Positions 2,408 through 53,383 of a stretch of 64,000 nt of DNA are shown here, piece by piece. The stretch is from an uncultured Candidatus Saccharibacteria bacterium (GTDB lineage Bacteria; Patescibacteriota; Minisyncoccia; 2-02-FULL-40-12; GWA2-44-9). The position numbers and the translations under genes were made by a program. Every line of letters starts with the position of its first letter. The stretch's first letter is position 1. The notes below the pieces were generated by a model. It did not search any database. It was not told where the DNA came from and saw only the letters and a list, made by a program, of their open reading frames with translations. The stretch is taken from assembly GCA_964491455.1 (NCBI GenBank), contig CAZBFM010000002.1:28947-92946 (forward strand), given 5' to 3'.

Positions 2408-2551
2408 CCTCCTTTCTTATCAATGTTCGAAGGCACTATAGTAATACAAAGGTGGTGCAATGTCAACTACGCGATGCTTGACTTTTGAGCATTTTAGCTG
2501 TAGAGTACTGCGTCGTTCTCTGACAATCTAGTTACAACCAAGGAGGGCTCT

Positions 2552-5101
2552 ATGCCCGAGAAACTACCCTGTCTTCTTCCTGACGATGTGAAGTTCATTC
2601 ACTACGATCTGGAGCTGGAGCCCGATTTCGAAAAGTTCGAATTTCGTGGCGCCGTCCGCATCACCTGCCAGGTTATTCGTCCGACCAAGAGTATCACCCT
2701 GCACGCTGCCGGGCTGACATTCTCGGCAGGCGCTCGCGTTGGCTACGAAAACCACTGCGGCAATGATGTTATTTCGTTTGCATCGCAGATCCAATTCGAC
2801 GACGCACAGGAACGCGTGACGATTCAGTTCGAAAAAGAGCTCCCCACCAAACTCGTGTACCTGACGATTGCCTACTCGGGTGAACTCAATGATTCGATGA
2901 AGGGCTTCTATCGCAGCTCGTATGTCGCCGCCGATGGGACTACCAAGTACCTGGCCGTGACGCAGTGCGAATCGACCGACGCCCGTCGCGTCTTGCCCTG
3001 CGGCGACGAGCCGGCGCTGAAGGCGACGTTTGCCGTGACTCTCATCCGACCCGTTGGCATGCACGCGCTATCGAACATGCCCATCCATTGGGATGTTCCT
3101 CATGGCGATAACAAGCGTAAGGTTCAATTCGGGGTTACCCCGAAGATGTCCACCTATCTGCTTGCCATCGTGATCGGCGACCTTGATTTCATCGAGACTG
3201 AGATGAAATCAGGCACCCGTGTGCGTGTCTACACGACACCCGGGAAATCTGAGCAGGGACGCTTCGCACTCGAGACAGCTTGCCGTGCTCTCGAGTTCTA
3301 CAACGCGTACTTCTGGATCAAATACCCGCTGCCGAAGCTGGACATGGTGGCCATTCCCGACTTCGCTGCCGGCGCCATGGAAAACTGGGGACTGGTGACG
3401 TATCGCGAAAACGCGCTCCTCATCGATCCCGTGCATTCGTCCGCAGCTGCCTACAAGCGCGTCGCTGAAGTGGTCTGCCACGAGCTCGCACACATGTGGT
3501 TCGGAAACCTGGTCACCATGACCTGGTGGACGCACCTCTGGCTCAACGAAGGCTTTGCAACCTGGGTTGCCAGCCATGCGATGCACCATCTGTTCCCTGA
3601 CTGGAACGTGTGGAATCACTTCGTTGCCGATGAGTACGAAGCTGGCCTCCAGCTGGATGCTCTGCGTTCTACCCATCCCATCGAGGTTGCCGTGTCGCAT
3701 CCCGATGAGATTTCGCAGATCTTCGATGACATCGCCTACGCAAAAGGTGCGAGCGTCATTCGCATGATCCACGAAGAACTCGGCGCGGAAGCATTTCGCG
3801 AGGGCCTGCATCGCTACCTGCATCGCTTTGCCTACGGCAACGCGTCGACGGATGATCTGTGGGCGTCACTGAGCCAAGCATCCGGACAGGATGTGGCGGC
3901 ACTTATGAGTAGCTGGACGAAGCAGCCTGGATTCCCGATCGTGCGATTCTTCGATGACATCGACGATGACCATACGACTACGCACATCGAGCAAGAACGG
4001 TTTGTTGCCGATGGGTCTGCACTCCTTCCATCAGAACGGGAGCAGCGATGGAAACTTCCTCGCCAAATCTATCAGCAGGAAGGAAATTCGTGGAAGATCA
4101 ACGTCGGCCAGTCATCGTTTGTTCGAGTACATTACACGAGCGAACACTTGCGTGGCCTCGGATATTCCATTGAACACGGGACTCTGCCGCCGCTGGACCG
4201 CTACGGCATCATCAGCGACACTCACGCGCTGACCCGTGCAGGCAAAGTCGACGTCGTCGACCTCCTGACGCTCATCGCCATGTATCGCCGAGAGACGGAC
4301 TACACTGTCTGGACTGCGGTCACTGCAGCGCTCGCCGATCTTCGCTCGCTCGTTGAAGATGACGCGGTGCTCGTGCGACGATTCAAAGAATTCGAATGTC
4401 GCATACTGACTCGCATTCATGGCGTCCTCGGCGTCGTTGAAGGCACTAATGATTCTCATGACACGAAGCTCCTTCGAGGGCTCATCATGGGAGCCATCGG
4501 ATCGGCGGGCAATCGCCCGACGATTCACCAGGCGAGAGCACTCTTCATGGACCATTTCAGTGGCACGGAGATTCTCAACCCCAATCTTCGTGCGCCAACG
4601 TACAAGCTCATTGCACGCGAAGCGAATTGGGACTACTACACCAAGCTCATCGCACTGCTCGAGCAAGCCACACTGCAAGAGGAGCGCGTGCGAATCCTGC
4701 ACGCCATGGGGCTCGTTGAAGAGCCGGCGATCATCCAGGATCTGCTAGCGCTCATCTTTGAACGGAAGCTCATTCGTACGAGTGACATCGTCTATGTCAT
4801 GCCAGCGATGGGATCGCATCCCGGCGGGCGACTCGCTCTGTGGGATTACGTCCGCACCAACTGGGGCGTCATCAACGAGTCCTACGGTAAAGGCACGAGG
4901 ATGATATCGCGCATCCTGGAAGGCATGATCTCCGGTCACGCAACGACGAATGCTGCTGACATGTTTGAAGTGTTCTTCCATCTCAATCCCGTACCAAGTG
5001 CGACGTCAAAAATCGCTCAGTCCATTGAAACGGTCAGGACGCGCGCCGCATGGCGTCAGCGCGACTCAGCAAAAATCGCTGAGTTCCTTTCCGGATTCTG
5101 A
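2552..5101 (+). CDS. pepN: Aminopeptidase N (M1 family zinc metallopeptidase).
   Basis: GAMENWG exopeptidase motif, HELAHMWFGN...LWLNEGFATW (HExxH-x18-E), length about 850 aa, and an AAGGAGGG RBS 6 nt upstream. Confidence 0.9.
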   Translation: MPEKLPCLLPDDVKFIHYDLELEPDFEKFEFRGAVRITCQVIRPTKSITLHAAGLTFSAGARVGYENHCGNDVISFASQIQFDDAQERVTIQFEKELPTKLVYLTIAYSGELNDSMKGFYRSSYVAADGTTKYLAVTQCESTDARRVLPCGDEPALKATFAVTLIRPVGMHALSNMPIHWDVPHGDNKRKVQFGVTPKMSTYLLAIVIGDLDFIETEMKSGTRVRVYTTPGKSEQGRFALETACRALEFYNAYFWIKYPLPKLDMVAIPDFAAGAMENWGLVTYRENALLIDPVHSSAAAYKRVAEVVCHELAHMWFGNLVTMTWWTHLWLNEGFATWVASHAMHHLFPDWNVWNHFVADEYEAGLQLDALRSTHPIEVAVSHPDEISQIFDDIAYAKGASVIRMIHEELGAEAFREGLHRYLHRFAYGNASTDDLWASLSQASGQDVAALMSSWTKQPGFPIVRFFDDIDDDHTTTHIEQERFVADGSALLPSEREQRWKLPRQIYQQEGNSWKINVGQSSFVRVHYTSEHLRGLGYSIEHGTLPPLDRYGIISDTHALTRAGKVDVVDLLTLIAMYRRETDYTVWTAVTAALADLRSLVEDDAVLVRRFKEFECRILTRIHGVLGVVEGTNDSHDTKLLRGLIMGAIGSAGNRPTIHQARALFMDHFSGTEILNPNLRAPTYKLIAREANWDYYTKLIALLEQATLQEERVRILHAMGLVEEPAIIQDLLALIFERKLIRTSDIVYVMPAMGSHPGGRLALWDYVRTNWGVINESYGKGTRMISRILEGMISGHATTNAADMFEVFFHLNPVPSATSKIAQSIETVRTRAAWRQRDSAKIAEFLSGF

Positions 5102-5109
5102 TACGTACT

Positions 5110-5137
5110 CCCCGCCAGCAATGGCGGGGATTTTTTG
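5110..5137 (+). terminator. Rho-independent terminator after pepN.
   Basis: ccccgccagcaatggcgggg hairpin followed by TTTTTTG. Confidence 0.7.
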
Positions 5138-5140
5138 TGA

Positions 5141-5170
5141 TTGCAGACCTACCAACATTCTTCTATACTC
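5141..5170 (+). promoter_or_regulatory. Sigma70-like promoter for pth (TTGCAG-N18-TATACT). The ATG lies 5 nt past the -10 box, which suggests a leaderless transcript.
   Basis: The -35 TTGCAG sits at 5141-5146 and the -10 TATACT at 5165-5170, with the pth ATG at 5176. There is no Shine-Dalgarno sequence between them. Confidence 0.4.
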
Positions 5171-5175
5171 ATCCC

Positions 5176-5745
5176 ATGAAACTTATCGTTGGTATCGGCA
5201 ACCCAGATGCGGAATATCTCCTCACTCGCCACAACGTTGGCTGGCAGTTTTTAGACTGGCTTCAAAAGAAGTATAAGGGCGGTGCATTTGAAGAAAACAA
5301 GAAAGTGCTCGGCATGGCAGCTACTATAGATATAGAAGGCGAGAAAGGATGGCTCCTCAAACCAACCACCTACGTCAATAAGTCCGGTGATAGTGTTCGA
5401 AAGGCAAAACCGTGGGCGAAGGCAAAAAACACCGACATTATTGTCGTGCACGACGATCTCGACATTCCGTTTGGCATGTGCAAATTTTCGTTTGAGAAAA
5501 ATTCTGGCGGTCATCGCGGCGTGCAAAGCGTTATCGACTCGCTGAAGACAACGAAATTCTATCGCATCCGCATCGGTACAGGTGTACGAGCGCTCGATAA
5601 AGCGCGTGATGAGTCGGATAAAAAACGTGATGAATTTGTGAAAGATTTCGTACTTAAGAAATTCACCCCTGCACAGCATGAGGAGCTCAAGGCAATCTTC
5701 AAAGAATGCGAAGTTCGCCTCTTCCAAGCGCTCAAGCACGGCTAA
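5176..5745 (+). CDS. pth: Peptidyl-tRNA hydrolase.
   Basis: N-terminus MKLIVGIGNPDAEYLLTRHNVGW (Pth signature), with the conserved His and an HDDLD region. The annotated GTG start at 5137 falls inside the terminator T-tract, so the ATG at 5176 is preferred. Confidence 0.85.
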   Translation: MKLIVGIGNPDAEYLLTRHNVGWQFLDWLQKKYKGGAFEENKKVLGMAATIDIEGEKGWLLKPTTYVNKSGDSVRKAKPWAKAKNTDIIVVHDDLDIPFGMCKFSFEKNSGGHRGVQSVIDSLKTTKFYRIRIGTGVRALDKARDESDKKRDEFVKDFVLKKFTPAQHEELKAIFKECEVRLFQALKHG

Positions 5746-5752
5746 CGCACGC

Positions 5753-7084
5753 ATGGCAACCGACTACCCCATCGCAGGCATGCACTGTCACTCCTGCGAG
5801 ATACTCGTCGAACAACACATCCAAAAAGTCCCCGGCGTGCAATCAGTGGACGTACATCACCACACAGGAATTGCTCGCGTGACACCGCAATCGGGACAGA
5901 CGCCAAATGAAGACGCCATCAAGCAAGCGATTCGTGACGCAGGATACACCCCCTCACAAGAACAACCACGACCGTGGATTGTCCGCGACAGCAACCAATG
6001 GATTGAAGCGATGGTCGCGGCGTGCTTGGTATTTGTGCTGTACATTGCCGCACGCCTTCTGGGAATCACATCGCTGTCAGCATCGATCGGCTCATCGGTG
6101 GGCATCGGGGTTGCACTTGTTGTCGGCCTTACTGCGGGCGTTTCCACCTGTGCCGCACTCGTCGGTGGCCTTGTGCTAGGATTTTCCGCACGCCACGCGG
6201 ATACACATCCACACGACACACTCTTGCAACGCCTTCGTCCTCACGCGTTTTTTCACCTTGGTCGCATCGTGGGATTTGCGCTCTTAGGTGGTGTGATTGG
6301 TTTTGCTGGATCAGCACTGCAGCCATCTGCGCTTCTCTTGGGAGTCCTTACGATGATTGTGGGTGTGGTGATGATTTCCTTAGGTATCAAACTCACCGAG
6401 CTAGTACCACGTGTTGATACACTTCTTACACTTCCACCGAGCATCGCGCGAACATTGGGCATCACCGCCGAGCATGCCTACAGTCACTGGCGAGCAATGC
6501 TCACCGGCGCGCTCACCTTTTTTGTGCCGTGCGGATTTACACAAGCGATTCAATTAGCTGCAGTCTCATCTGCGAGTGCTGCGCAAGGAGCGCTCATGAT
6601 GGGCGCATTTGCAGTGGGAACTACTCCGGGGCTTCTTGGTATCGCTGCCCTGTCATCACTGGTTCGAGGACCCTTTGCACGTTTTCTCTTTAAAGTGATT
6701 GGCGTTCTGGTTATCGGGCTAGGCGTCTGGAATATGAGTAATGGACTAACCTTGAGTGGCATTGCACTCCCTTCGCTGTCCGAAAAAGTCCAGGGCCCCC
6801 TGGCGGAGCTTCGCGGAGGCACGCAATACATAACCATGAAGCAAGGAGAGATTGGATACTCACCGAATACATTCACTATTCGAAAAGGCGTTCCCTTCGT
6901 ATGGACAATCACCTCCACGAGCTCATACACCTGCGCATCAACGTTGAGTGTGCCATCGCTGGGCATTCAAAAAAATCTTTCACTCGGAGATAATGTGATC
7001 ACCTTTACGCCATCGCGCAGTGGCACGATTCGATTTAGTTGCTCCATGGGTATGTTTGGGGGCGAAATAACCGTCATCGATTAG
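5753..7084 (+). CDS. Heavy-metal-associated (HMA) domain fused to a multi-pass permease and a C-terminal small beta-rich (cupredoxin-like?) domain.
   Basis: N-terminal GMHCHSCE (MxCxxC HMA motif), then at least 6 predicted TM helices including a conserved FFVPCGF segment, then a roughly 100-aa soluble C-terminal domain. It is immediately upstream of, and adjacent to, copA. The start at 5753 (ATG) was chosen because the longer ORF overlaps pth. Confidence 0.6.
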
Positions 7085-7085
7085 C

Positions 7086-9356
7086 ATGGCTAAAAAAACA
7101 ATCTCCATCCGCGGTATGCACTGCGCGTCATGCGTCCTGCTCATCGAACAAACACTCAAGAGCGTACCCGGCATCACGGAAGCAAATGCGAATCTTGCAA
7201 CGAACACCGCAACAATCACCTTCGACCCCCAGAACGTCACCGATCACGATATAGCGGAAGCCGTCAATAAAACGGGCTATGAAGTAGCCACCGAACAGCA
7301 CGAGGGCATGTCCGCTAGCGAACATTCTGCTCACCTCAAGCGCGAGAGCGCGCAAGAACTCATATCACTTCGACGAAAGGTCATTATATCGCTTGTATTC
7401 GGCGTACTCATCATATGGGGAAGCGTTCCTTGGCTTACCGCAACGGCTCCCTCGCTCCTTACGCAACCGTGGCTACAACTCCTCCTGGCGACTCCCGTCC
7501 AGCTTTGGATTGGCTTGGTCTTCTATCGACCCGCATTACGCGCTGCTCGTCATGGCACCTCAAACATGGACACGCTCGTTGCCATTGGAACAAGTGTCGC
7601 GTTTGCATACTCCACAGTCATCACAGTCGCCCCAACACTTGTGACGCGCATGGGCATCATTGCGATGCCATACTTTGATGTCAGCGTGATCGTCATTGGC
7701 CTCGTACTTCTGGGTCGCTATCTGGAAGCACGCGCAAAATCAGGAACCTCAGAAGCCATCGAAAAACTCATGGGACTGCAGGCAAAAACGGCGCGGGTCA
7801 TTCGCGACGGACAAGAGATTGATATTGCCATCGAACAGGTGATTGTTGGCGACACGATTCGCGTGCGACCGGGAGAGAAGATTCCCGTGGATGGTGTGAT
7901 TACCGAGGGCAGCTCTGCGCTCGATGAATCAATGGTGACGGGTGAAAGCATTCCCGCGAATAAGAGCGTCGGCGATACCGTTATCGGTGCAACGCTGAAC
8001 GTGCAGGGGTCCTTCCTCTTTACCGCTACAAAGATAGGCTCCGAAACGATGCTTGCGAGTATTATCAAACTCGTCCAAGACGCACAGGGGAGCAAAGCGC
8101 CCATTCAACGCTTGGCTGATCGCGTCTCATCGTACTTCGTTCCCGTGGTATTGGTACTCGCCGTTCTGACATTTGTAGTCTGGTATTTCGTCGGCCCATC
8201 CCCCACGCTCCCCTACGCGCTCCTAAACATGGTTGCCGTGCTCGTCATCGCCTGCCCCTGTGCTATGGGACTGGCAACACCCACAGCTATCATGGTCGGA
8301 ACCGGTGCTGGTGCGCAACGTGGAATCTTGATAAAAAATGCAGCAGCACTCGAAGTCGCTCACTCAATCACCGCAGTGCTGTTTGATAAAACAGGAACAC
8401 TCACCGAAGGCAAGCCGCGGGTCACTGGTGTTATCACCGTAGATGGATACACCGAATCAGACATCCTTCGTTTGGACGGAGCACTCGAGCAATCCTCAAG
8501 CCACCCGGTCGCGAAGGCCATCACCGATGAGGCGCGTCACCGAGGAGTCTCCCTCCAGGGATCACCGCAACAGTTTGAGGCCGTCGCCGGATTTGGCATT
8601 CAGGGACTCGTTGAGGGTCAGCAGCTCGTGTCGGGCACTGAACGTTTCATGCAGATGAAAAAGATTGATGTAACTCTTCTGCGCGCACAGATTGATACGC
8701 TCATGGACGGTGGCAACACGCTCACCATCGTTGCTGCCGATGGCATTGTCATCGGAGCCATTGCGATTGCCGATACCATCAAGCCAACTGCGCGACAGAC
8801 GATAGACACGCTCAAAAAAATGGGAGTATCAGTTGCCATGATAACGGGTGATCACGAACGCGTAGCATCATCGGTCGCACACGCACTCGGCATTGATCGC
8901 TACTTTGCGTCTGTGCTCCCCAGCGACAAAGCAAGCTACGTCACTAAACTCCAACGCGAAGGCAACAAGGTTGCCATGGTTGGCGATGGCATCAACGATG
9001 CGCCAGCGCTTGCTGCCTCAGACGTGGGCATCGCCATCGCAACGGGCACTGATGTCGCCATCGAAGCGGCGGGTATCACCCTCGTCAACAAAAACCTCAT
9101 CGCAATTGCAACGACGCTCGCTCTTTCGCGAGCCACCATGCGCACCATCAAACAGAACCTCTTTTGGGCATTTGGGTACAACATCATCCTTATTCCGATT
9201 GCCATGGGAGCTCTCTATCCGTTCACCGGCACGCTCATGAATCCAATGCTTGCATCAGCGGCGATGGCGCTTAGTTCAATTTCCGTGGTGCTCAATTCTC
9301 TAATCCTAAAGAGAAAGGATATACAGCCAAGCGGCACGCCGCGGCTCCGTATGTAA
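7086..9356 (+). CDS. copA: Copper-translocating P1B-type ATPase.
   Basis: N-terminal HMA GMHCASC; the CPC transmembrane metal site ([12 protein letters not shown]); DKTGTLT phosphorylation motif; GDGINDAP hinge; 756 aa. Confidence 0.92.
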
Positions 9357-9506
9357 TCCCACGTCGCCAAGCGGCACGCCGCGGCTCCGTATGTAATCCC
9401 ACGTCGCCAAGCGGCACGCCGCGGCTCCGTATGTAATCCCACGTCGCCAAGCGGCACGCCGCGGCTCCGTATGTAATCCCACGTCGCCAAGCGGCACGCC
9501 GCGGCT
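9326..9506. repeat. Perfect 40-bp tandem repeat of about 4.5 copies (unit ccaagcggcacgccgcggctccgtatgtaatcccacgtcg). The first copy encodes the last residues and TAA stop of copA.
   Basis: Direct reading: four identical units at 9326-9485 and a 21-bp partial fifth. The unit contains the palindrome gccgcggc. There are no spacers, so it is not a CRISPR. Confidence 0.95.
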
Positions 9507-9600
9507 CCTCTGGATATTTCCATGTTGCCTTATGCAACATGGAAATAAAAACGACCCCTCACAGAGAGGGGTCGTGGCTACCACGATGGTAGCGGCTAAC
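9507..9600. terminator. Cluster of three stem-loops between the convergent copA and MYG1-like genes, likely bidirectional terminators.
   Basis: tttccatgttgc-cttat-gcaacatggaaa (12-bp stem) followed by A-run; gacccctc-acag-agaggggtc; gctaccacgatggtagc. Confidence 0.6.
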
Positions 9601-10870
9601 GCTGCGCGCGGTGATGTCCGCGAGGACGCGTGGTCTGTGCAAGACCCTCGCGGATGCAACGCTCGATCTGCTCGATCGAAAGACTCGTTCGCTTCACCGT
9701 TCTGGTTTTGACCGTTGAGTTGAAGATGGCAATTATCTTGCCATATTTCTCGAACAGAAACCATTCCGGCACCTCAGGCAACGTACCCGGCTCGTACAGA
9801 CGCCAGGGCGGCAGACGACGCCCACCGAGATTCGCGCTCTCAGCATCACGCAAACGAGCGCCGATCGGGCGCAGGTCTCGACGATGATCGCTGAAGATCT
9901 GCACGTGCCCGCTGGAGCGCACCTGCACGATCAGCGCGAGCTGCGGATCCGACGCACGTGCAGCCCGGTTCATCTGCTCATTGTCGGAGCGGATGACTGC
10001 CACCTTCACGGGGCAGTCGGCCAGCATGTGCGACTTGGATGCGAAGTCGTCGATGGCAGCCATGAACTGCTGCTGGACGAAGACCTTTGCGTTGAGAACG
10101 ACGCGAGCATTTTCGACGATCGCCTCCATCATGAAGCCAGCCATTTGCATGGCGTAGACGACGCCAGCAAACGAGAACGGATCCTCCGCGTCCATCTGCA
10201 CATCCAAGTACTTCTGGATGTGTGCGAGCTCTCCCGTCATCTCTTCGGTCAGCTGCGCCTTCACTGTCGGCGCGTCCATGAAGTCCTGGAACGAGAAAGA
10301 CGGATCGGTGTCGATCGCCTCCATGCTGAATCGCTCAAGGAACCAGCATATCGCGATCTGCTTGACCGACATCAGCTCACTGGTCTTCTCGTAGCGATTC
10401 ATGAAGACGTCGTAGAGCGAATTGAGCCACCGATCGACGATGCGCCTGACCTGCTCCAAAGGGACGCCCGCGGAGTGCATGTCCTTGATCAGCCGCGCCA
10501 TCGCGAAGGGACCATCGGTGGCCTTGTCGTCTGCCTTTACGGCGTACGCCAAAATAGGCTTCAGGCCGGCGTTGTCCGTGAGACCAAGGAACTCGGCAGT
10601 CAACGATGCGGCAGACTTGCCGTCTCCCTTGCCGTGCTCGTCGAATCGGCCACCCAGAGCGCCGATAACGACGAAGCCCTTCTTGAGCCAATCATCACCG
10701 GTCTCGCCAGGCTTGAGCGAGAGACCAGCATCGATGGTCTGAATCGGCGACCGAGAGAGACCTGGATAGACCTGCTTGCCGAAGCGGCTCAATAGCCACA
10801 ACGCAAACAACTCGTCCAGGTCCGGCCTGTGATGCGTCACAGCACGATACGACGTAACCTTCTTTTCCAT
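9596..10870 (-). CDS. MYG1/UPF0160-like metal-dependent hydrolase (tentative).
   Basis: N-terminal THHRPDLDELFALWLL resembles the MYG1 THxGxFHxDEAL motif. GALGGRFDEHG resembles the GGxYDxxxxRxDHH motif. A C-terminal LPPWR segment resembles MYG1 LPEPWRG. Confidence 0.35.
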   Translation of the reverse strand: MEKKVTSYRAVTHHRPDLDELFALWLLSRFGKQVYPGLSRSPIQTIDAGLSLKPGETGDDWLKKGFVVIGALGGRFDEHGKGDGKSAASLTAEFLGLTDNAGLKPILAYAVKADDKATDGPFAMARLIKDMHSAGVPLEQVRRIVDRWLNSLYDVFMNRYEKTSELMSVKQIAICWFLERFSMEAIDTDPSFSFQDFMDAPTVKAQLTEEMTGELAHIQKYLDVQMDAEDPFSFAGVVYAMQMAGFMMEAIVENARVVLNAKVFVQQQFMAAIDDFASKSHMLADCPVKVAVIRSDNEQMNRAARASDPQLALIVQVRSSGHVQIFSDHRRDLRPIGARLRDAESANLGGRRLPPWRLYEPGTLPEVPEWFLFEKYGKIIAIFNSTVKTRTVKRTSLSIEQIERCIREGLAQTTRPRGHHRAQR

Positions 10871-10977
10871 ACTGTCTCCTTGCTCCTCGCATGTGGGGAG
10901 CGTTGTGAAAGAACGTGGATCCTATACCCACGCTGAGTATCTATTATAGCAGAAAATAGCTATAAAGTCAATAGACC

Positions 10978-11688
10978 TTACTTCGTCGCGAACTTGATGA
11001 TGAACGCCGTCGCCACAAATAATCCGGCCGCAAACATCGCGAGCGCGACATATTGCCAAATGATCGGTCGATCGCGTTGCACGAGGAGAAATTCACGCTG
11101 CACATCCGCGAATGCCTTTTCGACATCGGACTCTGATTTGGTGGGGTACTGCGCATATGCGTGATCGCTGGCGTTCATTTTGTTGGCGACCGCACGCTTG
11201 AGATAGGCTTGATTGAAAAACCGTATGACATCCGCATGCGAAATGATTCCCACGAGCTTTTTTTGCTCATCGACCACGCAGATGGTGCTAGTGCGTGGAT
11301 AATCGGCAAAGACGTTGCTTGCCTCTTCGAGCGATGCGGTGTGCGGCAAGCTGATAGGATTGAGATCCATGATGCTCGTTGCTTTGATGTTCCGTAATTT
11401 TCCAAAGTGCGCATCGAGAGCGCGCTGGTCACCCTTCCCTTTGGTAATTTGTTCGATGAGACGAAGCATTGTTGGCAGGTGCACCTCTGACGACTGCAGT
11501 ACCATGTCATGCTTAGTGATGATGCCCTTGAGTGCGTGCTGACTATCAATGACGGGCATGCCCTCGTAGTCGTACTTCTCAAAGAGTCCAGCGATCACAT
11601 CGAGCGTATCATTGACGTCAATAGCGATGACGTCGCGCGTCATCACATCACGAAGGGTCATTACGGGGGCAGAACGCTCTTCATTCAT
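10978..11688 (-). CDS. Tandem CBS-domain protein with a C-terminal transmembrane anchor.
   Basis: Two CBS repeats (MTRDVIAIDVNDTL...GMPVID and TSIMDLNPISL...ICVVDEQKKLVGIIS) and a hydrophobic C-terminal helix. Confidence 0.7.
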   Translation of the reverse strand: MNEERSAPVMTLRDVMTRDVIAIDVNDTLDVIAGLFEKYDYEGMPVIDSQHALKGIITKHDMVLQSSEVHLPTMLRLIEQITKGKGDQRALDAHFGKLRNIKATSIMDLNPISLPHTASLEEASNVFADYPRTSTICVVDEQKKLVGIISHADVIRFFNQAYLKRAVANKMNASDHAYAQYPTKSESDVEKAFADVQREFLLVQRDRPIIWQYVALAMFAAGLFVATAFIIKFATK

Positions 11689-11756
11689 ACGCCCAGTATA
11701 GCACAGGACCCCTCATGAAGAGGGGTCCTGTGTGGACGCATACAGTGTAGTATCGT

Positions 11757-13787
11757 CTAGAGAAATGGGGCGATCAAGAGCGCTACGATGTTGGCGACTT
11801 TGATCATCGGATTGATCGCGGGACCAGCGGTATCCTTGTACGGATCGCCCACCGTATCACCGGTGACTGCCGCCTTGTGCGCGTCACTCCCCTTGCCTCC
11901 ATGCGCACCTTCTTCGATGTATTTCTTTGCATTGTCCCACGCGCCACCACCGGACGTCATAGAGATTGCAACAAACAGTCCTGACACGATCGTTCCCATG
12001 AGAAGCCCTCCGAGTGCCTCTGGCCCAAGTGCGAATCCAACGATAATCGGAACAAACACTGGGATCAATGCAGGGACCACCATCTCACCGAGCGCAACAC
12101 GCGTCACAATATCAACTGCTGCTCCGTAGTCGGGCTTCGCGGTATGCTCCATGATTCCTTTGATTTCACGGAACTGTCGACGAACCTCATCAACAACGGC
12201 AGATCCCGCGTGACTGACCGCCTGCAACGCCATCGAACCAAACAGGTATGGCATCATGCCACCAATAAGCAACCCTACAATGACGCGAACATCGGATAGA
12301 TCAAATCGCGCATGATTGCCAGCAGCGAGAAGCTCTTGCGTGTATGCGGCAAATAAGACGAGTGCCGCCAAGCCAGCCGATGCGATCGCATATCCTTTGG
12401 TAACCGCCTTGGTGGTGTTACCCACCGCATCGAGCGCATCGGTGATCGTGCGCACATCCTCAGGGAGATGCGCCATCTGTGCGATACCTCCTGCGTTATC
12501 GGTGATCGGACCGAATGCATCAATAGCCAAAACGATACCTGCCAATGAAAGCATACTCAATGTCGCAAGCGCGATTCCGTAAAGTCCTGCGATCGTGTAC
12601 GCACCGAGCATCGCCGCTCCAATAACCACCAACGGGAGCGCAGTCGCCTGCATGCCCATAGCGATCCCCATGATGACATTCGTACCGTGACCGGTTGTGG
12701 ATGCCTGTGCGATTAAACGAACCGGGGAAAAACTCTTCGACGTGTAATACTCCGTGATCACCACCATCAATATGGTGACGGCAAGACCAATCATCAGTGT
12801 CCACACGAGACTCATCGAGCTGACACCCATCCACATCAAATCGCCCAATGACGTCGCCGACCACATGTAGGTCACCGCGCCGTACATGCCCGCCCCAGCA
12901 AGAACCGTGGTGACGCCAAGTCCCTGGTAGAGTGATCCCATGATACTACCTCGCAGTCGTACGATGAGTGAACCGATCATTGACGCCCACACACCGACTG
13001 AACCGATGACCAACGCGAGCTCAGCAGCTCCAACATTGCCCTCAAAAAGAAGTCCCGCAAGAAGCATCACCGAGACCACTGCGACGATATACGTTTCAAA
13101 TACATCAGCCGCGGTACCCGCCTGATCGCTGACGTTATCACCTACCAAGTCTGCTATGACTGCAGGATTGCGAGGATCATCCTCCGGAATGCCGGCTTCT
13201 ACCTTACCAACAAGATCAGCACCGACATCGGCACCCTTGGTGAAGATTCCACCACCGAGACGAGCGAATACAGAGATAAGTGAGCCACCAAAACTCAAGC
13301 CAATGAGCGACTTAATGTCTCCGGTGAGCACATACAAGAGCGTCAGCGAGAGCAGAGCGAGTCCTAGAACGAGAAAACCCGTCACTGCGCCACCCTTGTA
13401 TCCCATACTGAATGCTTCCGCCATTCCTACTCGAGCACTCTCGGCTACGCGCACATTTGCACGAACAGCTACCATCATACCGGCGTAGCCAGCGACAGCA
13501 GAACCGATGGCACCAATGACAAATCCGAGGGCAGCGTGCCAACCGACGATGACGTACAGAATAACTCCAACCACCACACCAACGACGAACACTGTGCGAT
13601 TCTGTCGACGCAAAAATGCCGATGCTCCCTCCAGAATTGCGGCGGCAATTTCTTGCATCTCCGCATTTCCCGACGAGCTCCGCAGAACTTGCCAGGCAAG
13701 GAAACCACTAAACGCCAACGCCACGACAGCTGACACGAGTGAAAATAGAACAATCTCCATAGCAGTGCGATAAATTAATACCTGCAA
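11757..13787 (-). CDS. hppA: Membrane-bound proton-translocating pyrophosphatase, K+-independent type.
   Basis: [29 protein letters not shown]-like and [14 protein letters not shown] motifs. The GNTTKA segment (Lys rather than Ala) is the signature of K+-independent H+-PPases. 676 aa and multi-TM. Confidence 0.9.
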
Positions 13788-13892
13788 AATGTACCAGCAT
13801 ACTATAAGGTATTTTCACGACAAGACAAGCTGTGCACCCGCAGATTGACACTACAATATTTTCATAGTATTGTTTTCGCGGAGGAGATCCCT

Positions 13893-14276
13893 ATGAGCAC
13901 AGTGCTGTGGGCCGGCATCAGCGTCGACCCGATGAGAAGCGGAACAGTGGAAGCACACCTCATGAATCATCGTATCGATTGCGCGCTCACGCGAGTGGCA
14001 AGCCGAACACTCTCGTCAGTACTGGGAGATGATGGCTCGGAAATCTATCGATACATGATTGATGATGTCATCATCACCGACTTTCACGATCGTCGCGGCG
14101 AACGCGTCGGCATCGGCATTGAAGCTGGTGATATCGAGGATGCCTACAGCCTCCTCGACGACGCCTACGAGCTGCTCGCAGATGTCCTCGGCATCATCGA
14201 CAAGTTCGATGAAGTTGAAGTATGGATGTGGGATCGCTGCGCAGTTCCCCGCGTGCCACCAAGCATCTGCCCCTAG
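13893..14276 (+). CDS. Hypothetical acidic protein.
   Basis: ORF with a GGAGGAG RBS 7 nt upstream of the ATG at 13893, followed by a clean terminator. No recognisable domain. Confidence 0.4.
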   Translation: MSTVLWAGISVDPMRSGTVEAHLMNHRIDCALTRVASRTLSSVLGDDGSEIYRYMIDDVIITDFHDRRGERVGIGIEAGDIEDAYSLLDDAYELLADVLGIIDKFDEVEVWMWDRCAVPRVPPSICP

Positions 14277-14282
14277 ACCTCA

Positions 14283-14345
14283 ACCGAGAGCTTCAACTCT
14301 CGGTTTTTTTATACAAAAAAACCCGCCACGTGATGTGGCGGGTGG
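14283..14345. terminator. Back-to-back rho-independent terminators serving convergent genes.
   Basis: ccgagag-cttcaa-ctctcgg + TTTTTTT (plus strand). cccgccac-gtga-tgtggcggg, preceded by AAAAAAA, acts on the minus strand. Confidence 0.75.
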
Positions 14346-14349
14346 GCGG

Positions 14350-15018
14350 CTAGCGGCGGAAGAGATACCACTGACGATGAATATCATGCTGATGAACAAA
14401 CTCAGCACCGGTAAGAATTCTCTTTCCTGCAGCACCGATGGTTGCCCAGTGAAAGCATCCCGCAATCGCAAGTGTCTCTGTCGCAATGAGCGTGTCCGTC
14501 AAGCCAAAACCCCGATCTACGAAACCACTCGTACGCTTGATGATAGACTCTTCGACGATCAGCAGATCATGAGGATTCGTCAAACGCAGATCATTGTCGC
14601 GCGCCCAGGGCTCTGCTTCCGCTAGTGGCGTCGTAAGTTTATGATGCGCGACAATGCCTGGCGACCGCTGCACAAAAACGTATATTTGAGGCCTCGGAAG
14701 CTGGAGCGGGATGCACGCCTCCAAAGCACGCGTTGCGCCACGATCGACCCAGAGTCCATCATCGAACGCAGAAAGCTCATCCAGCGAAAAGAGTCGCCGA
14801 GGCGTCACGCTAATTTCCACAATTCGCTCAGCCCACGACGGCTGACTCAATCGCGGCAGCACATTGATCTCGGCGCCCGTCTGAATCGCACGCAGAGCTG
14901 TTTCGAGCTTGTCGCGACCACGCAGGATCTGCTGGCGGGTCAGGCCCATTGCAAGCGCCGTACGCAGCAAACCCAAGAACTGTTGCTCAGTCACTTGATC
15001 GACTTTCTTACTTGGCAC
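14350..15018 (-). CDS. Hypothetical protein.
   Basis: 222-aa ORF with coding-like composition, bounded by a terminator and the rmuC stop. No confident motif. Confidence 0.4.
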   Translation of the reverse strand: MPSKKVDQVTEQQFLGLLRTALAMGLTRQQILRGRDKLETALRAIQTGAEINVLPRLSQPSWAERIVEISVTPRRLFSLDELSAFDDGLWVDRGATRALEACIPLQLPRPQIYVFVQRSPGIVAHHKLTTPLAEAEPWARDNDLRLTNPHDLLIVEESIIKRTSGFVDRGFGLTDTLIATETLAIAGCFHWATIGAAGKRILTGAEFVHQHDIHRQWYLFRR

Positions 15019-15048
15019 AACTGCCTCCTAAAAAGAGAAGAACGAAAA

Positions 15049-16050
15049 TTACTCTAACATCGAATCAGCTTCTTGTCCAGACTCTGCGGCAGTGCTGATC
15101 ACTTTCTGCGTTCGTGAGACAAGATGGCCAAGTTTCTTTTCACTTCGTTCGAATGCGGATTGTGCATCGCCGAGATGATCACCTAATTTGCGAAAATCAG
15201 TCGCAAGAGTATTAGCATCTTTCATGACCACTTCAAGGCGCTTCATGATAGCTCCCGTTTGCTTCTGCAGCTGCACATCCTTGAACCAGTGAATCACCGC
15301 GGTGAGCGTGATGTAGAGTGTATTGGGAGACGTGAGATACACCTTGCGCTTACGGGCGTATTCAGACACATCATCGTCTTTGAGATTTTGGATGACTTCG
15401 TAGTAGATACTTTCTGCTGGCATATACATCAATGCCATATCGACAGTCCCCTCCGATGGGAGCACATATTTTGTTGCAATCTCATCGATGCGCTTTTTGA
15501 TATCGCTCAAAAATTGCTTACGGTACGCAACGCGAGCAGGCTCATCTTGCGCCTCTGACATTTTTTGAAAATTCTCCCAGCTAAACTTTGAATCAATGGG
15601 GAGAAGTAGCTCATTGGGAAGTTTAAGGACTGCATCGACGATTTCACCCGATGCAAATGGATGTTGCTCATCGAATCCACCGTGCGGGAAATACTCGTGC
15701 AATATTGCTCCCAGCGTGAGCTCGCCCCACGTACCACGATGCTTGGGCGAACGAAACATCTCCTGAAACGATGAGACCCCTTTCACCGATTCTTGCACCT
15801 GATGCACCGTCTCGCGAAGTTCCGTCATCCCCCGCGTAAATGACTGCACCTGCGACGCCACCGATGTTGCAGATCGTTCACTTGCTTGTCGACTATGCTC
15901 GAGCTGCTGTGCCATCTGTGATGCCAATGCATCGATTCTCGCGCTCACCAACGCCAAGGGATCCGCCCCTTGAGGAGACGAGCTTCGCCTCGCAATCACG
16001 AGTGCTGCAATCACAATGGACACGGCGAGAATAATGAGGGCGCTATTCAT
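15049..16050 (-). CDS. rmuC: DNA recombination protein RmuC.
   Basis: N-terminal TM helix, long coiled-coil, and the conserved HRGTWGE...PNTLY region typical of the RmuC family. Confidence 0.8.
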   Translation of the reverse strand: MNSALIILAVSIVIAALVIARRSSSPQGADPLALVSARIDALASQMAQQLEHSRQASERSATSVASQVQSFTRGMTELRETVHQVQESVKGVSSFQEMFRSPKHRGTWGELTLGAILHEYFPHGGFDEQHPFASGEIVDAVLKLPNELLLPIDSKFSWENFQKMSEAQDEPARVAYRKQFLSDIKKRIDEIATKYVLPSEGTVDMALMYMPAESIYYEVIQNLKDDDVSEYARKRKVYLTSPNTLYITLTAVIHWFKDVQLQKQTGAIMKRLEVVMKDANTLATDFRKLGDHLGDAQSAFERSEKKLGHLVSRTQKVISTAAESGQEADSMLE

Positions 16051-16137
16051 GTCCTCTAGTGTACTATACGGCGGTCGAGATACAATCGTTCATGCAATAT
16101 TGTACAAACGAAAAGAAATAGCTACTATCGCCTTGCT

Positions 16138-17718
16138 ATGGCAACACCAACAATCCTCAAACTCACGGGACAGACACTCACCACACACGACGTACAGGCG
16201 GTCGTTACCCACCCTCGCCTGCAGGTGCGCGTTGCACCCGCCGCTCTCATTGGAATGCGCAAATCCAAAAAACTTCTCGATGCCACTCTCACCGAGCGCA
16301 TTATCTATGGCGTCAATACAGGTTTTGGTCCAATGGCCTCTCATATTATTGGTCGCGATGACCTCCTACAACTCCAGCTCAATCTTGTGCGCAGCCACTC
16401 CAGTGGCATCGGAGCTCCGATTGATTCCAACCTCGTACTTGCGGCAATGGTCATTCGCCTCAACACACTCTCAAAGGGATTTTCGGGCGCGTCCGATGCC
16501 GTCGCCCATCAACTCGAAAAGTTTATCAACGCCCGCATCACTCCTATCATCCCAGAGCACGGCGCTGTTGGAACAAGTGGCGACCTCGTGCAACTCGCAC
16601 ACATTGCACTTGCCCTCATTGGAGAAGGTGAGGTGCACTACCGCGGCGAACGCATGCCGACCGCAACTGCGCTCGCAAAAGAGAAAATTGCACCACTTAC
16701 GCTCGGACCAAAAGAGGGGCTAGCACTGATCAATGGCACCGCTGGAATGACGGCTGTTGCTGCAATCCTCTGTGAAGCGGCGGCACGCATTGTTGCGCTC
16801 AGCCTCCGCACCGGTGCGTGGTCGCTTGATATCGTGGGTGGATTCGACGACAGTATTAGCGAGCGCATTCATGCGGTACGCCCACACGCCGGCCAACGAG
16901 TCGCCGCTGCTGCCCTTCGAGGTCTCGTCGCCAAAAGTGGCCGCATGAAAAATCGCGAAGCATTCAACAAGAAGCACGCTATTTCCGATGAGGTCCACAA
17001 AATCGCCGAAGATGTTCAGGAGATGTACTCCCTTCGATGCATACCGCAGATTGTTGGGCCCGTGCTTGATGCGTTCTGGAGAGTCCGTAGCGACGTCACC
17101 ACGGAAATGAATTCTGCCACTGACAATCCGATTGTGGACTGGGAGCGTGGCGTCTTTCTCCATGGAGGCAACTTTCATGGTGAATACATCGCCGCTGCAG
17201 TCGACTACCTCAAGACTGGCATGATCAAGCTCACTATGCTCAGCGAGCGGCGCATCAATTACTTCATGAATCCTGCAATCAATCATCGATTGCCTCCATT
17301 TGTGAATCTGCACACTCCTGGACTTACCCTCGCGCTCCAAGGCATGCAATTTGTCGCCACCTCCACAGCAGCACATAGTCAATCGTTGGCATTCCCCCAT
17401 CATATTCACTCCATTCCAACAAATGGGGATAACCAAGATGTTGTGAGCATGGGATTTGATGCAGCCCTCATCGCCACCAAGGCAATTGAAAATGCATATG
17501 CCGTCCTTGCTATTGAGATGGTGACACTCGCTCAAGCCACCGATGCTCTGAAGTGCTCTCGCGAACTATCGCCCGAAAATCAGCAACTCTATCGGGCAAT
17601 TCGCAAGCTCACTCCCCCCGTGATCGAAGATCGCCCACTTGCACCTGATCTTGAGCGCATCGTCGCGTTTCTCAAGTCATCACCAACACTGCCCATCGAC
17701 TCACTCAGGAAGCAATGA
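16138..17718 (+). CDS. Aromatic amino-acid ammonia-lyase/aminomutase family (HAL/PAL/TAL, MIO-dependent) homolog.
   Basis: Family-typical GTSGDLVQLAHIAL with Thr-Ser-Gly at the MIO-forming triad (canonical Ala-Ser-Gly), plus NTGFG and the conserved C-terminal fold. 526 aa. Confidence 0.8.
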   Translation: MATPTILKLTGQTLTTHDVQAVVTHPRLQVRVAPAALIGMRKSKKLLDATLTERIIYGVNTGFGPMASHIIGRDDLLQLQLNLVRSHSSGIGAPIDSNLVLAAMVIRLNTLSKGFSGASDAVAHQLEKFINARITPIIPEHGAVGTSGDLVQLAHIALALIGEGEVHYRGERMPTATALAKEKIAPLTLGPKEGLALINGTAGMTAVAAILCEAAARIVALSLRTGAWSLDIVGGFDDSISERIHAVRPHAGQRVAAAALRGLVAKSGRMKNREAFNKKHAISDEVHKIAEDVQEMYSLRCIPQIVGPVLDAFWRVRSDVTTEMNSATDNPIVDWERGVFLHGGNFHGEYIAAAVDYLKTGMIKLTMLSERRINYFMNPAINHRLPPFVNLHTPGLTLALQGMQFVATSTAAHSQSLAFPHHIHSIPTNGDNQDVVSMGFDAALIATKAIENAYAVLAIEMVTLAQATDALKCSRELSPENQQLYRAIRKLTPPVIEDRPLAPDLERIVAFLKSSPTLPIDSLRKQ

Positions 17719-32935: not shown

Positions 32936-32957
32936 GGCGTGTACAAACTATCTGCTG

Positions 32958-33030
32958 TGGACCCTAGCAGGTTCGAACTGCTGACCTCCTCATTGCAAAT
33001 GAGGCGCTCTACCAGCTGAGCTAAGGGCCC
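32958..33030 (-). tRNA. tRNA-Ala (anticodon UGC).
   Basis: Reverse complement GGGCCCTTAGCTCAGCTGGTAGAGCGCCTCATTTGCAATGAGGAGGTCAGCAGTTCGAACCTGCTAGGGTCCA. It has the G3:U70 Ala identity pair, anticodon loop TT-TGC-AA, a T-loop GTTCGAA, and no encoded CCA. Confidence 0.9.
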
Positions 33031-33041
33031 GTATACCGCGG

Positions 33042-33113
33042 TGGGCGATCTAGGAATCGGACCTAGGACCTCTGTCTTATCAGGACAGCGTTCTACCACT
33101 GAACTAATCGCCC
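33042..33113 (-). tRNA. tRNA-Ile (anticodon GAU).
   Basis: Reverse complement GGGCGATTAGTTCAGTGGTAGAACGCTGTCCTGATAAGACAGAGGTCCTAGGTTCGATTCCTAGATCGCCCA, with anticodon loop CT-GAT-AA. Confidence 0.9.
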
Positions 33114-42182: not shown

Positions 42183-42375
42183 TTCTAATCTTACACAGTC
42201 AATTAGTTTCAGAGTGCGCTTTTGTTCCTAGCACCATGAACGGAACTCCGATTTCGCTGTCGGACCCAGCATAGTACGTACGCCGTGAGGCCCTTGCGGG
42301 TCGCGCGACGTACACCCTATATCGACTTCTTTTACCTTTCCCAAACTTCTCTCTACACGAAGTAGAAAGAATAGA

Positions 42376-43874
<1,499 letters not shown>

Positions 43875-44104
43875 CTTAAAAAGGAAACTTTCATTTCCCG
43901 GCTGAGAACTAATTGACTGTGTAAAATTGGAAATGTCCTGTTGGGCTGGACGAAGGTAGATATGCCTTCTTCAACAACACAACCCCGTATGCCTCCGTTG
44001 CAGAAGCATGCGGGGTTGGACTGTCTTTGTGCATTGTTTGGTGCCTTTCCCTCCTGGGTGTCGCTTTGGACTCCCTATCTACGGGGCAAGGGTCATTATA
44101 CACG

Positions 44105-51229: not shown

Positions 51230-51304
51230 GCGTTAACGCCCGAGATTATAGAGTTGGGTGATTTCTGCCGCGGAGAGTGCGCGGTTGTACACGCGGACGT
51301 CGTC
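51001..51304. repeat. Perfect direct repeat of about 304 bp (copy A). It spans the 5' 228 nt of LamG copy 1, the 3-bp junction and the 3' 72 nt of LamG copy 2.
   Basis: Identical base-for-base to 53080-53383 (offset 2079 bp, which equals the gene period). Confidence 0.9.
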
Positions 51305-53308: not shown

Positions 53309-53383
53309 GCGTTAACGCCCGAGATTATAGAGTTGGGTGATTTCTGCCGCGGAGAGTGCGCGGTTGTACACGCGGACGTCGTC
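53080..53383. repeat. Perfect direct repeat of about 304 bp (copy B), at the LamG copy 2/copy 3 junction.
   Basis: Identical to 51001-51304. Confidence 0.9.

Follow-up and report, generated by a model that had tools for sequence, protein, structure and literature searches.

A perfect 40-bp minisatellite at the end of copA in a CPR bacterium, probably a recent slippage product beside a lost stop codon

In a CPR (Paceibacteria-like) bacterium, the short spacer between the convergent genes for a copper-transporting ATPase (copA) and a protein of 424 amino acids (aa) contains a perfect tandem array, and the stop codon of copA lies inside the first repeat unit. Such an arrangement raises the question of whether a repeat that appears to encode the end of an enzyme is a switch, a regulatory site, a remnant of a mobile element or an accident. 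We analysed a stretch of 64,000 nucleotides that includes this locus (hereafter, the window) and compared the spacer with those of related loci. With a probability of roughly three in four, the array is a young VNTR-type minisatellite that arose by slippage or unequal recombination and, most likely, serves no function itself. It is probably an ordinary outcome of slippage, neutral in effect, and neither a switch nor a site for a regulator.

Structure of the tandem array

Tandem Repeats Finder places the array at positions 9326-9508 of the window, with a period of 40, 4.6 copies, 100% matches, 0 indels and a score of 366, in agreement with the perfect 40-bp array described in the first-pass annotation. 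The repeat unit is GCCAAGCGGCACGCCGCGGCTCCGTATGTAATCCCACGTC, with 67.5% G+C and 17.5% A. Four full 40-bp units start at 9326, 9366, 9406 and 9446, and are followed by a 23-nt partial unit (9486-9508), which is the box of an intact terminal module (see below); no strand is assigned to the array itself. The 23-nt part of the unit occurs five times in the 64 kb and the 17-nt part four times, in all cases at the array, compared to chance expectations of 0.01 and 0.15, respectively. This is the sole array in the window with at least three units and at least 50 nt. Because all the units are still identical, the amplification appears to be recent, as previously suggested, and relatives with copA nucleotide identity of ~93-94% indeed lack the 40-bp array. 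Elsewhere in the window, the 3' end of another gene carries a further perfect tandem duplication (42 bp x 2.3), so that such events apparently recur in this genome.

The predicted fold of a single unit is no more stable than that of shuffled sequence (z about 0), and two units show modest box-to-box pairing (z of -1.9 and -2.5); given this weak self-structure, a special secondary structure is neither needed nor shown for slippage. Three minus-strand open reading frames (ORFs) across 9215-9764 consist of a repeated peptide and overlap real genes, and the 126-nt single-copy spacers cannot encode them; we agree with the initial interpretation that these ORFs are artefacts of the repeat.

Copy number in an independent assembly

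The reality of the array could be assessed in an independent short-read assembly. Of two Logan k=31 contigs (run SRR12404947), one ends at window position 9355 and the other begins at 9479, the exact branch points computed for the array in a de Bruijn graph. Breaks at these positions arise only with at least two full units, so at least two full units are present in the reads, and the array is not purely an assembly artefact. This answers the concern about an artefact for at least two full units; the count of four full units is that of the assembled contig.

It is possible, although on balance we doubt it, that the array is real and its length is a product of assembly, the true copy number being other than 4.6 or heterogeneous in the population. 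The 183-bp perfect array is longer than the 150-nt reads, the Logan assembly was unable to cross it, and assemblers are documented to collapse or miscount units in such regions (PMC9879509). However, 183 bp is not the shortest path through the graph at any usual k (k = 21-141), the minimal paths being 63, 103 or 143 bp, which implies that some read or pair evidence probably set the length; furthermore, the flanks are joined correctly and are syntenic with those of two related loci, L004 and L011.

Loss of the ancestral copA stop codon

The copA gene (7086-9356, plus strand) encodes a Cu+ P-type ATPase of 756 aa, identified by its ORF, by the Pfam domains HMA, E1-E2_ATPase and Hydrolase that are assigned to an identical CopA product, and by homologues named Cu+-exporting or heavy-metal ATPase. 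The ORF terminates at TAA (9354-9356, plus strand) within unit 1, as originally described. Comparison of codons with those of the relatives points to a loss of the ancestral stop codon upstream of this TAA. The CAG at 9324-9326 (plus strand), the G of which is also the first base of the array, occupies the position that is taken by TAG in L004, L008 and L009, and by TAA in L010, L011 and the outgroup L005. In the C-terminal alignment of 61 sequences, the last 10 codons of CopA prove to be derived, having been added by read-through: the 60 nearest homologues all stop 0-7 residues past the position of the ancestral stop, and the tail in the window is the longest of the 61 C-termini. Thus, CopA carries its 10-residue tail because, in this genome, CAG replaces the ancestral stop that every relative retains as TAG or TAA.

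By this codon comparison, the TAG-to-CAG stop loss appears to be an event separate from the amplification of the repeat. The earlier statement that the repeat encodes the C-terminus of CopA therefore holds in part: the stop codon is inside unit 1, but the tail results from stop loss and not from a replacement of the C-terminus by the repeat. In this respect, the gene resembles known cases in which a protein is extended into 3' flanking sequence after the loss of a stop codon: one T-to-C substitution abolishes the stop, and the ribosome continues to the next in-frame stop. The difference is that, in this case, the next stop lies in a repeat unit, so that the repeat appears to encode the C-terminus.

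A conserved module and three hairpins follow the array

The four full units lead into a conserved single-copy module (9477-9547, plus strand), delineated by its occurrence in relatives and a covariance model, which consists of TCCCACGTC (9477-9485), the 23-nt GC-rich box (9486-9508), a TCTGGA linker (9509-9514) and hairpin 1 (9515-9547, plus strand), with a predicted 14-bp stem. Hairpin 2 (9551-9575, minus strand) has a 10-bp stem followed, on the minus strand, by TTTTTATTT in the terminator scan. The GC-rich stem, the T-run and the conserved structure, including a compensatory pair (A-U to G-C, two lineages versus two), identify it as a predicted intrinsic terminator of the convergent gene. 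Hairpin 3 (9577-9593, no strand assigned), with a 7-bp stem, is invariant in four lineages and is located directly behind the stop of this gene. The DNA fold of the hairpin region has an energy of -33.2 kcal/mol compared to -8.2 in shuffles (z = -12.2); the RNA fold was computed as well. The three hairpins that had been noted after the array are therefore confirmed, with stems of 14, 10 and 7 bp at 9515-9593. The convergent gene itself (9596-10870, minus strand; 424 aa) is a clade-restricted, fast-evolving ORF that matches no Pfam family, and its stop codon at 9596-9598 shows that the end originally given for the locus, 9600, was about right.

Hairpin 1 contains one compensatory pair, and its terminal copy keeps the pairing, the unpaired cells coming only from the upstream copy in L004. 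Rfam 15 gave no match to the locus at the gathering threshold; in a permissive Rfam search, the best match scored 13 bits against a threshold of 47 and covered the terminator alone.

Allelic states in relatives and a likely route to the array

Several states of the spacer are found among the relatives. L011 has a single module in a spacer of 126 nt, and L010 and L012, over which the module is split, probably represent a single copy as well. In L004, the box and hairpin 1 are present as an imperfect 70-bp duplicate, with the module as the downstream copy; L008 and L009 have the same allele, their contigs breaking 41 nt after the stop, as computed for the 70-bp duplicate. The outgroup (L005/L006) has the terminator only. 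Among the relatives compared, the array of four 40-bp units is found in the window type only. The 40-mer matches the two ends of the 70-nt unit of L004, its 5' part aligning over 23 nt and its 3' part over ATGxAATCCCACGTC, across a net gap of 30 nt, and the junction of AATCCCACGTC with GCCAAGCGG is common to the window and L004.

These states suggest a stepwise origin. The ancestral spacer would have contained one module (TCCCACGTC, the 23-nt box and hairpin 1), followed by the terminator hairpin 2 and hairpin 3. A tandem duplication of ~70 bp, encompassing the box, hairpin 1 and CCCACGTC, would then have fused the upstream box to the copA stop codon, a state apparently kept in the sister allele, in which the upstream hairpin already seems to be decaying. 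In the lineage of the window, a net loss of 30 bp from the upstream copy would have left two direct repeats of the 23-nt box separated by 17 nt, an ideal substrate for slippage, and slipped-strand mispairing would have amplified the resulting 40-bp period to four full units. Independently, the change of TAG to CAG would have let translation run 10 codons into unit 1, the new TAA stop lying in the part of the unit that was, under this scenario, deleted and substituted. Subsequent gain or loss of units would only alter the length of the 3' untranslated spacer ahead of the intact module and the terminators. The first three steps (single module, duplication and deletion) appear as allelic states in sequences of the relatives; the order of events, the slippage mechanism and the neutrality are what we infer from them.

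The order is made uncertain by recombination. The locus sits in a recombination patch: over the last 1200 nt of copA, L004 and L010 show seven differences, every one of them within the 28 nt at the very end.

Constraint on the module and possible regulatory roles

The module differs from that of L004 at 2 of 76 nt and thus is better conserved than the third-codon positions of copA; the binomial probability of so few mismatches is 7.5e-4 at the copA third-position rate and 0.12 at the mean copA rate. The outcome of this test depends on the neutral rate chosen, with P ranging from 0.12 to 8.5e-6, and is confounded by the recombination patch, which could by itself explain the high identity of the module. 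Conservation above that of third positions implies that the box might be a functional site and that its multiplication need not be neutral.

It is nevertheless unlikely, in our assessment, that the box functions in cis, whether as DNA bound by a protein or as an RNA motif of the 3' UTR acting with hairpin 1, and that its five-copy amplification is adaptive; in such a role it could, for example, serve as a roadblock or insulator where the two convergent transcription units meet, or affect mRNA stability. The module is conserved in four lineages in which the flanking 424-aa gene is 84-90% identical, hairpin 1 shows a compensatory change, and the box holds an 8-bp palindrome, with a 40-bp spacing that would be close to four helical turns. 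However, this palindrome is broken in L011 (GCCGCGAC) and the box also varies at another position (C, A or TA), hairpin 1 is missing from the extra units, decay is under way in the upstream duplicate of L004, the amplification occurred in one lineage only, no regulator gene adjoins the locus, the palindrome is not enriched elsewhere, and the high identity may reflect the recombination patch. Slightly less likely still is the bolder version, in which TCCCACGTC, the 23-nt box and hairpin 1 together would be an undescribed, clade-specific cis-element of Paceibacteria-like CPR bacteria, located between convergent genes, and selection would have driven the five-fold amplification of the box, so that the array would be a working multi-site form of the element; such an element may act as a protein-bound roadblock or as an RNA 3'-end element.

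A copper-responsive operator had also been proposed. The CopY operator (cop box) is a TACANNTGTA inverted repeat upstream of the cop promoter, and the CsoR operator is a GC-rich pseudo-palindrome that overlaps the cop promoter, with the csoR gene nearby. The proposal is not supported: the array is 3' of copA, between convergent genes, and 9326-9600 contains no match to TACANNTGTA even with 1 mismatch, nor is this pattern enriched in the window. Compared with the description of the CsoR operator, rather than a consensus model, the array differs in its position 3' of the gene, in having no neighbouring regulator gene and in that the palindrome of the box, broken in one lineage, is not conserved.

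Several other candidates were considered and rejected. The palindrome GCCGCGGC is not a genome-wide motif, its 2 other occurrences in the 64 kb being at the chance level. A CRISPR array is incompatible with a 17-nt 'spacer' that is identical in all units. As for iterons or a replication origin or terminus, cumulative GC skew is monotonic across the window, with no skew switch, and the neighbours are copA and a 424-aa protein without a Pfam family.

Search for dispersed copies

REP/BIME or MITE-type elements are present in many dispersed copies per genome and are marked by terminal inverted repeats or target-site duplication. The absence of the module from a relative with 76% identity, which implies that it was gained in this clade, together with its strong hairpin and the location of the locus in a recombination patch, might suggest that the unit is the end or remnant of a mobile or dispersed element (of the REP/BIME, MITE or IS-terminus type), but we consider this origin very improbable. 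Searches of the window for the box, the 17-mer and hairpin 1, exact and with 3 mismatches, gave no match outside the locus; a degenerate-box search of the related loci (73 kb) and a covariance model of the module run over 137 kb found this locus only (best other E = 0.12). Among GTDB species representatives, there is one match to the 23-mer, in Methylobacterium with different flanks, which is a chance match. Searches of JGI metagenomes for the box and for hairpin 1, and of IMG/VR, returned 0 matches each, and phages and plasmids likewise gave none in a sensitive blastn comparison. The Logan contig passes through the box and hairpin 1 without branching, and neither the alignment nor L011, the allele with one copy, shows terminal inverted repeats or target-site duplication. 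The suggestion that the array derives from a mobile-element terminus or a REP-like element thus finds no second copy to rest on in any of these collections.

Least plausible of all is a contingency (phase-variation) locus that switches the C-terminus of CopA by unit number. In its favour, 40 bp is not a multiple of 3 and the repeat extends over the end of the ORF. However, the in-frame TAA comes from unit 1 whatever the number of units, so that copy-number change leaves the tail and the stop unaltered (756 aa at 1-8 full units in simulation, only the loss of all full units changing the protein, to 821 aa), the tail arose recently through the accidental loss of a stop codon, and the array is 3' of both flanking genes. 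Neither the predicted alteration of the CopA tail or stop nor the contingency locus survives this simulation, in which no frame shift results from unit gain or loss, ruling it out for both.

Comparison with known tandem repeats

The preferred reading, a VNTR-type minisatellite formed by slippage, was compared with known systems. Bacterial VNTR or minisatellite loci, used in MLVA typing, are formed by slipped-strand mispairing. Like these, the array is made up of head-to-tail units measuring tens of bp, lies between genes or at the end of one, is bounded by a partial unit and needs no function, and its structure differs among relatives: single in L011, a 70-bp duplicate in L004, L008 and L009, and four 40-bp units in the window type. 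Assignment to this class rests on such differences between related lineages; within-population variation would be the hallmark of an active VNTR. Unlike typical cases, the stepwise origin by duplication, deletion and amplification is unusually visible here, and the host is an uncultivated CPR bacterium.

Mycobacterial interspersed repetitive units (MIRUs, MIRU-VNTR), which are dispersed over many loci, share with the array a tandem unit tens of bp long and overlap with the end of a flanking ORF. They appear to be mobile, and a small ORF inside them is coupled to the downstream gene, which has the same orientation (PMC12548453). In contrast, the array is confined to one locus, its flanking genes converge and no ORF is coupled to it; hence it is not of the MIRU type.

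The perfect tandem repeats of Borgs are accompanied by flanking partial 'seed' repeats, in some cases start inside ORF ends, break or collapse assemblies, and have been read as recent slippage products (PMC9879509). The resemblance to the array extends to perfect units, the flanking partial 'seed' repeat, a possible start inside an ORF end, an intergenic unit that is often not divisible by 3, absence or difference in close relatives, and contigs that terminate or collapse (PMC9879509). Borg repeats, however, are rich in A and occur pervasively, about once every 18 kb (PMC9879509), whereas the array has 17.5% A, belongs to a bacterial chromosome and is the only one with at least three units in 64 kb.

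Implications

The locus serves as a caution, in that a 'repeat encoding a protein end' resolves into stop-codon loss and slippage expansion. The allelic series in the relatives exposes the intermediates: the single module, the 70-bp duplicate, the deleted duplicate and the amplified 40-mer. CPR genomes can carry perfect minisatellites that break contigs, which is relevant to the assembly of MAGs and to the calling of gene ends. To our knowledge, almost no cis-regulatory elements are known in this group, and, if functional, the module of box and hairpin 1 would be a new intergenic element in these bacteria.

A perfect tandem array between copA and its convergent neighbour

The copA ORF (7086-9356; 756 aa, with HMA, E1-E2 ATPase and hydrolase domains) runs into a perfect tandem array at 9326-9508, which Tandem Repeats Finder scores as 4.6 copies of period 40 that match at 100% without indels. 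The repeat unit, GCCAAGCGGCACGCCGCGGCTCCGTATGTAATCCCACGTC, contains 67.5% G+C, and the array comprises four full units plus, at its end, a box of 23 nt, GCCAAGCGGCACGCCGCGGCTCC. Neither this box nor the 17 nt that complete the unit occur outside the array within the 64-kb window (chance expectations 0.01 and 0.15). The copA stop codon, TAA at 9354-9356, lies within unit 1. Behind the array are three hairpins with stems of 14 bp (hairpin 1, 9515-9547), 10 bp (hairpin 2, 9551-9575) and 7 bp (hairpin 3, 9577-9593), whose joint folding energy is -33.2 kcal/mol, compared with -8.2 kcal/mol in shuffled sequence (z = -12.2). The first-pass annotation, which had reported the array, the end of CopA in unit 1 and the three hairpins, was right in all these descriptive points; its interpretation is only partly supported, as detailed below.

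On the minus strand, the stem of hairpin 2 is directly followed by TTTTTATTT, which marks it as the intrinsic terminator of the gene that runs towards copA and encodes 424 aa (9596-10870, minus strand). This gene, which always adjoins copA in these genomes, belongs to no Pfam family, and its product has only 15 homologues at E <= 1e-20 among 5.8 billion sequences, all unnamed except for one labelled merely 'hypothetical protein'; the protein is clade-restricted and fast-evolving.

The array in independent assemblies

The nearest CopA homologues carry the names Candidatus Pacebacteria or Paceibacterota, and the organism is a CPR/Patescibacteria bacterium. Among the Logan contigs (k=31 assemblies of public sequencing runs) of run SRR12404947, one encodes an identical CopA and ends at window position 9355; another encodes an identical downstream protein and starts at 9479, exactly 30 repeat bases ahead of the unique exit. 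For comparison with these contig ends, the branching 31-mers were computed from the window sequence. Two predecessors lead into the first of these, which starts at 9326, and two successors lead out of the last, which ends at 9508; therefore, unitigs must stop at 9355 and resume at 9479, precisely as observed. In simulations, this break pattern required at least two full units, and with 0 or 1 unit the k=31 contig was uninterrupted. Thus, a multi-unit array is present in the SRR12404947 reads, the bound being at least two full units rather than an exact length. Nor is the array a trivial collapse product, because the shortest graph paths for k = 21-141 are 63, 103 or 143 bp, not 183 bp.

Allelic series and origin of the array

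Relatives retrieved through the 90% CopA cluster and through proteins homologous to the 424-aa product comprise four related lineages and one outgroup. In the outgroup (L005/L006), CopA is 76% identical, and beyond the stop TAA there is only one terminator hairpin. In the related locus L011 (SRR13287453), the entire spacer of 126 nt holds one module, that is, a TCCCACGTC-type lead, the box and hairpin 1: it reads TAA, AGGGACA, TCCCACGTC, the box (GCCAAGCGGCACGCCGCGACTCC), TCTGGAT, hairpin 1, AAAAA, hairpin 2 and hairpin 3. Loci L010 and L012 (SRR32119641) show TAA, an A-run, GAAAATCCCACGTC and the box ahead of a contig gap, and CTGGAT and the three hairpins past it; their hairpin 1 carries a compensatory change from C-G to T-A. 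In the sister allele L004 (GCA_017992005.1), as well as in L008 and L009, the stop TAG abuts the first box directly. The 70-nt unit of L004 (box, TCTGGAT, a decayed hairpin 1 and CCCACGTC) is followed by a second, intact copy of box and hairpin 1, and the contigs of L008 and L009 end 41 nt past the stop, the exact branch point computed for an imperfect duplicate of the L004 type. The window 40-mer aligns to both ends of this 70-nt unit, with a net 30 nt absent between them: the 23-nt box has 1 mismatch, ATGTAATCCCACGTC matches ATGAAATCCCACGTC, and the junction of AATCCCACGTC with GCCAAGCGG is common to the window and L004.

The simplest history suggested by these alleles would start from one module in the spacer, which gave rise to a 70-bp tandem duplicate. 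The upstream copy would then have lost 30 bp, leaving two direct repeats of 23 nt with 17 nt between them, and slippage or unequal exchange would have amplified the 40-bp period. The amplification is recent, as the first-pass annotation had proposed, because the four units are still identical although copA has diverged by about 6-7% between the lineages and the 424-aa gene by 10-16%. Altogether, we put the probability at roughly three in four that the array is a recent, probably neutral slippage expansion from an older local duplication, with CopA ending in unit 1 through an unrelated stop loss.

The repeat-encoded tail of CopA

The codon aligned to window positions 9324-9326 is TAG in L004, L008 and L009, TAA in L010, L011 and L005, and CAG in the window. 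When the window CopA was aligned with its 60 nearest homologues, all the others ended 0-7 residues past the ancestral stop position, and the 10-residue extension was found in the window protein alone among the 61 sequences. The C-terminus encoded by the repeat is, therefore, read-through after a T-to-C stop loss. The TAA that now ends CopA sits where deletion and substitution have altered the unit. It had been suggested that copy-number change would alter the CopA tail or stop context, making the array a contingency locus. However, when the locus was rebuilt with 0-8 full units, every count from 1 upward yielded the same 756-aa CopA, and only zero units yielded a different product, of 821 aa; CopA thus cannot be tuned by copy number, and the proposal of a contingency locus fails.

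Comparison with known elements and other features of the window

No second copy turned up to support a mobile-element terminus or REP-like element: a covariance model built from TCCCACGTC, the box and hairpin 1 recovered this locus alone in 137 kb of window and related loci, and the repeated sequence had no similarity in phage or plasmid collections and was not found in IMG/VR or JGI metagenomes. GTDB species representatives yielded one 23-mer match, in Methylobacterium, with unrelated flanks, which we regard as chance. No Rfam family was detected at gathering thresholds, the best permissive match (13 bits) falling on the terminator. The suggested copper operator is not borne out for the CopY type, as the CopY box TACANNTGTA is not found in the array; the palindrome GCCGCGGC occurs at chance-level frequency outside the array and is broken in L011. 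The window shows no GC-skew switch, and the array has no rep-like neighbour. Within the loci and collections searched, the REP/MITE, CopY-operator, iteron and CRISPR readings each lack at least one defining feature. Elsewhere, one exact TACAGGTGTA (the CopY-box pattern) falls within the 3' portion of the Pth coding sequence at 5577-5586, about 170 nt before the HMA-DsbD_2-cupredoxin gene begins. It is probably due to chance, because a stretch of 64 kb should hold about 2 such exact matches and no gene for CopY was seen.

By kind, the array is a bacterial VNTR or minisatellite. Its best-described analogues, the perfect tandem repeats of Borg elements, are fast-evolving, are flanked by partial seed repeats, sometimes begin inside the end of an ORF, frequently have units whose length is not a multiple of three, and cause assemblies to break or collapse (PMC9879509). 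However, Borg repeats are A-rich and pervasive (PMC9879509), whereas the window unit is GC-rich and isolated. MIRUs fall in the same size range and likewise overlap the ends of ORFs; they occur dispersed, seem to be mobile and are coupled to genes in the same orientation (PMC12548453), whereas the array occupies a single locus between convergent genes.

A second perfect tandem repeat (60467-60563; 42 bp x 2.3, 100% identity) lies at the extreme 3' end of the minus-strand ORF 60460-63936, which encodes a 1158-aa glycine-rich (PF21722) protein. Being in frame, it encodes TPEATPDVTPTPTP in repeats right before the stop and truly lengthens the Thr/Pro-rich C-terminal tail of the protein. Two genes downstream of this large protein is a putative PaaX-like regulator (59279-59896, minus strand; PF20803, Cas2-like central domain). 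At 49170-55400, about nine diverged direct repeats with 650-730 nt spacing and 60-97% identity (97% between 53046-53345 and 50967-51266) make up a tandem array, either of paralogous genes or of repeat domains, and account for the two ATGCGCAGAGG micro-repeats found at 51170 and 53249. The 16S rRNA gene (42375-43881, minus strand) is separated by about 9.3 kb, with housekeeping genes (GAPDH, a transketolase-like and a bPH-domain protein) between, from the tRNA-Ala and tRNA-Ile pair (32957-33113, minus strand); a C39-like peptidase gene comes after tRNA-Ala, and no 23S rRNA was detected within the 64-kb window. The rRNA arrangement is unlinked, and the Ile/Ala tRNA pair, which is of the spacer type, is an orphan.

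Module conservation and recombination

The single-copy module is highly conserved and differs at 2 of 76 positions between the window and L004 and at 1 of 75 between the window and L011, in which hairpins 2 and 3 are identical to those of the window. Pairing in hairpins 1 and 2 is each preserved by a two-sided change, and pairs are lost in the redundant upstream hairpin copy of L004, which fits real 3'-end structures of two convergent genes; the covariation in four lineages is statistically weak, the observed score being reached in 22 of 500 shuffles. For the box, evidence of constraint depends on the rate assumed, with a binomial P of 0.12 at the mean copA divergence and 7.5e-4 at the third-codon-position rate.

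Rather than from selection, the high module identity may result from spacer exchange between lineages, given a recombination patch and mosaic identity along the region (69% to 98% per 150 nt). Over the last 1200 nt of copA, 7 positions distinguish L004 from L010, two strains that are nearly identical elsewhere; every one of these positions lies in the final 28 nt (L004 10214-10241 vs L010 1939-1966), and the 1172 nt upstream contain none. Differences between L004 and L010/L012 continue throughout the spacer, and L004 and L012 differ at 28 positions in the 423-aa gene, the counterpart of the 424-aa gene, mostly near its 3' end. A spacer-centred patch of a few hundred nucleotides has been replaced, and in this patch L004 resembles the window.

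Across window 2477-17436, identity to L004 is 85% for the M1 peptidase, 98.7% for Pth, 97.4% for the HMA-DsbD_2-cupredoxin gene and 93.5% for copA, and about 69% in the 3' part of the 424-aa gene; this strongly mosaic pattern suggests that homologous recombination is frequent among the CPR lineages compared here.
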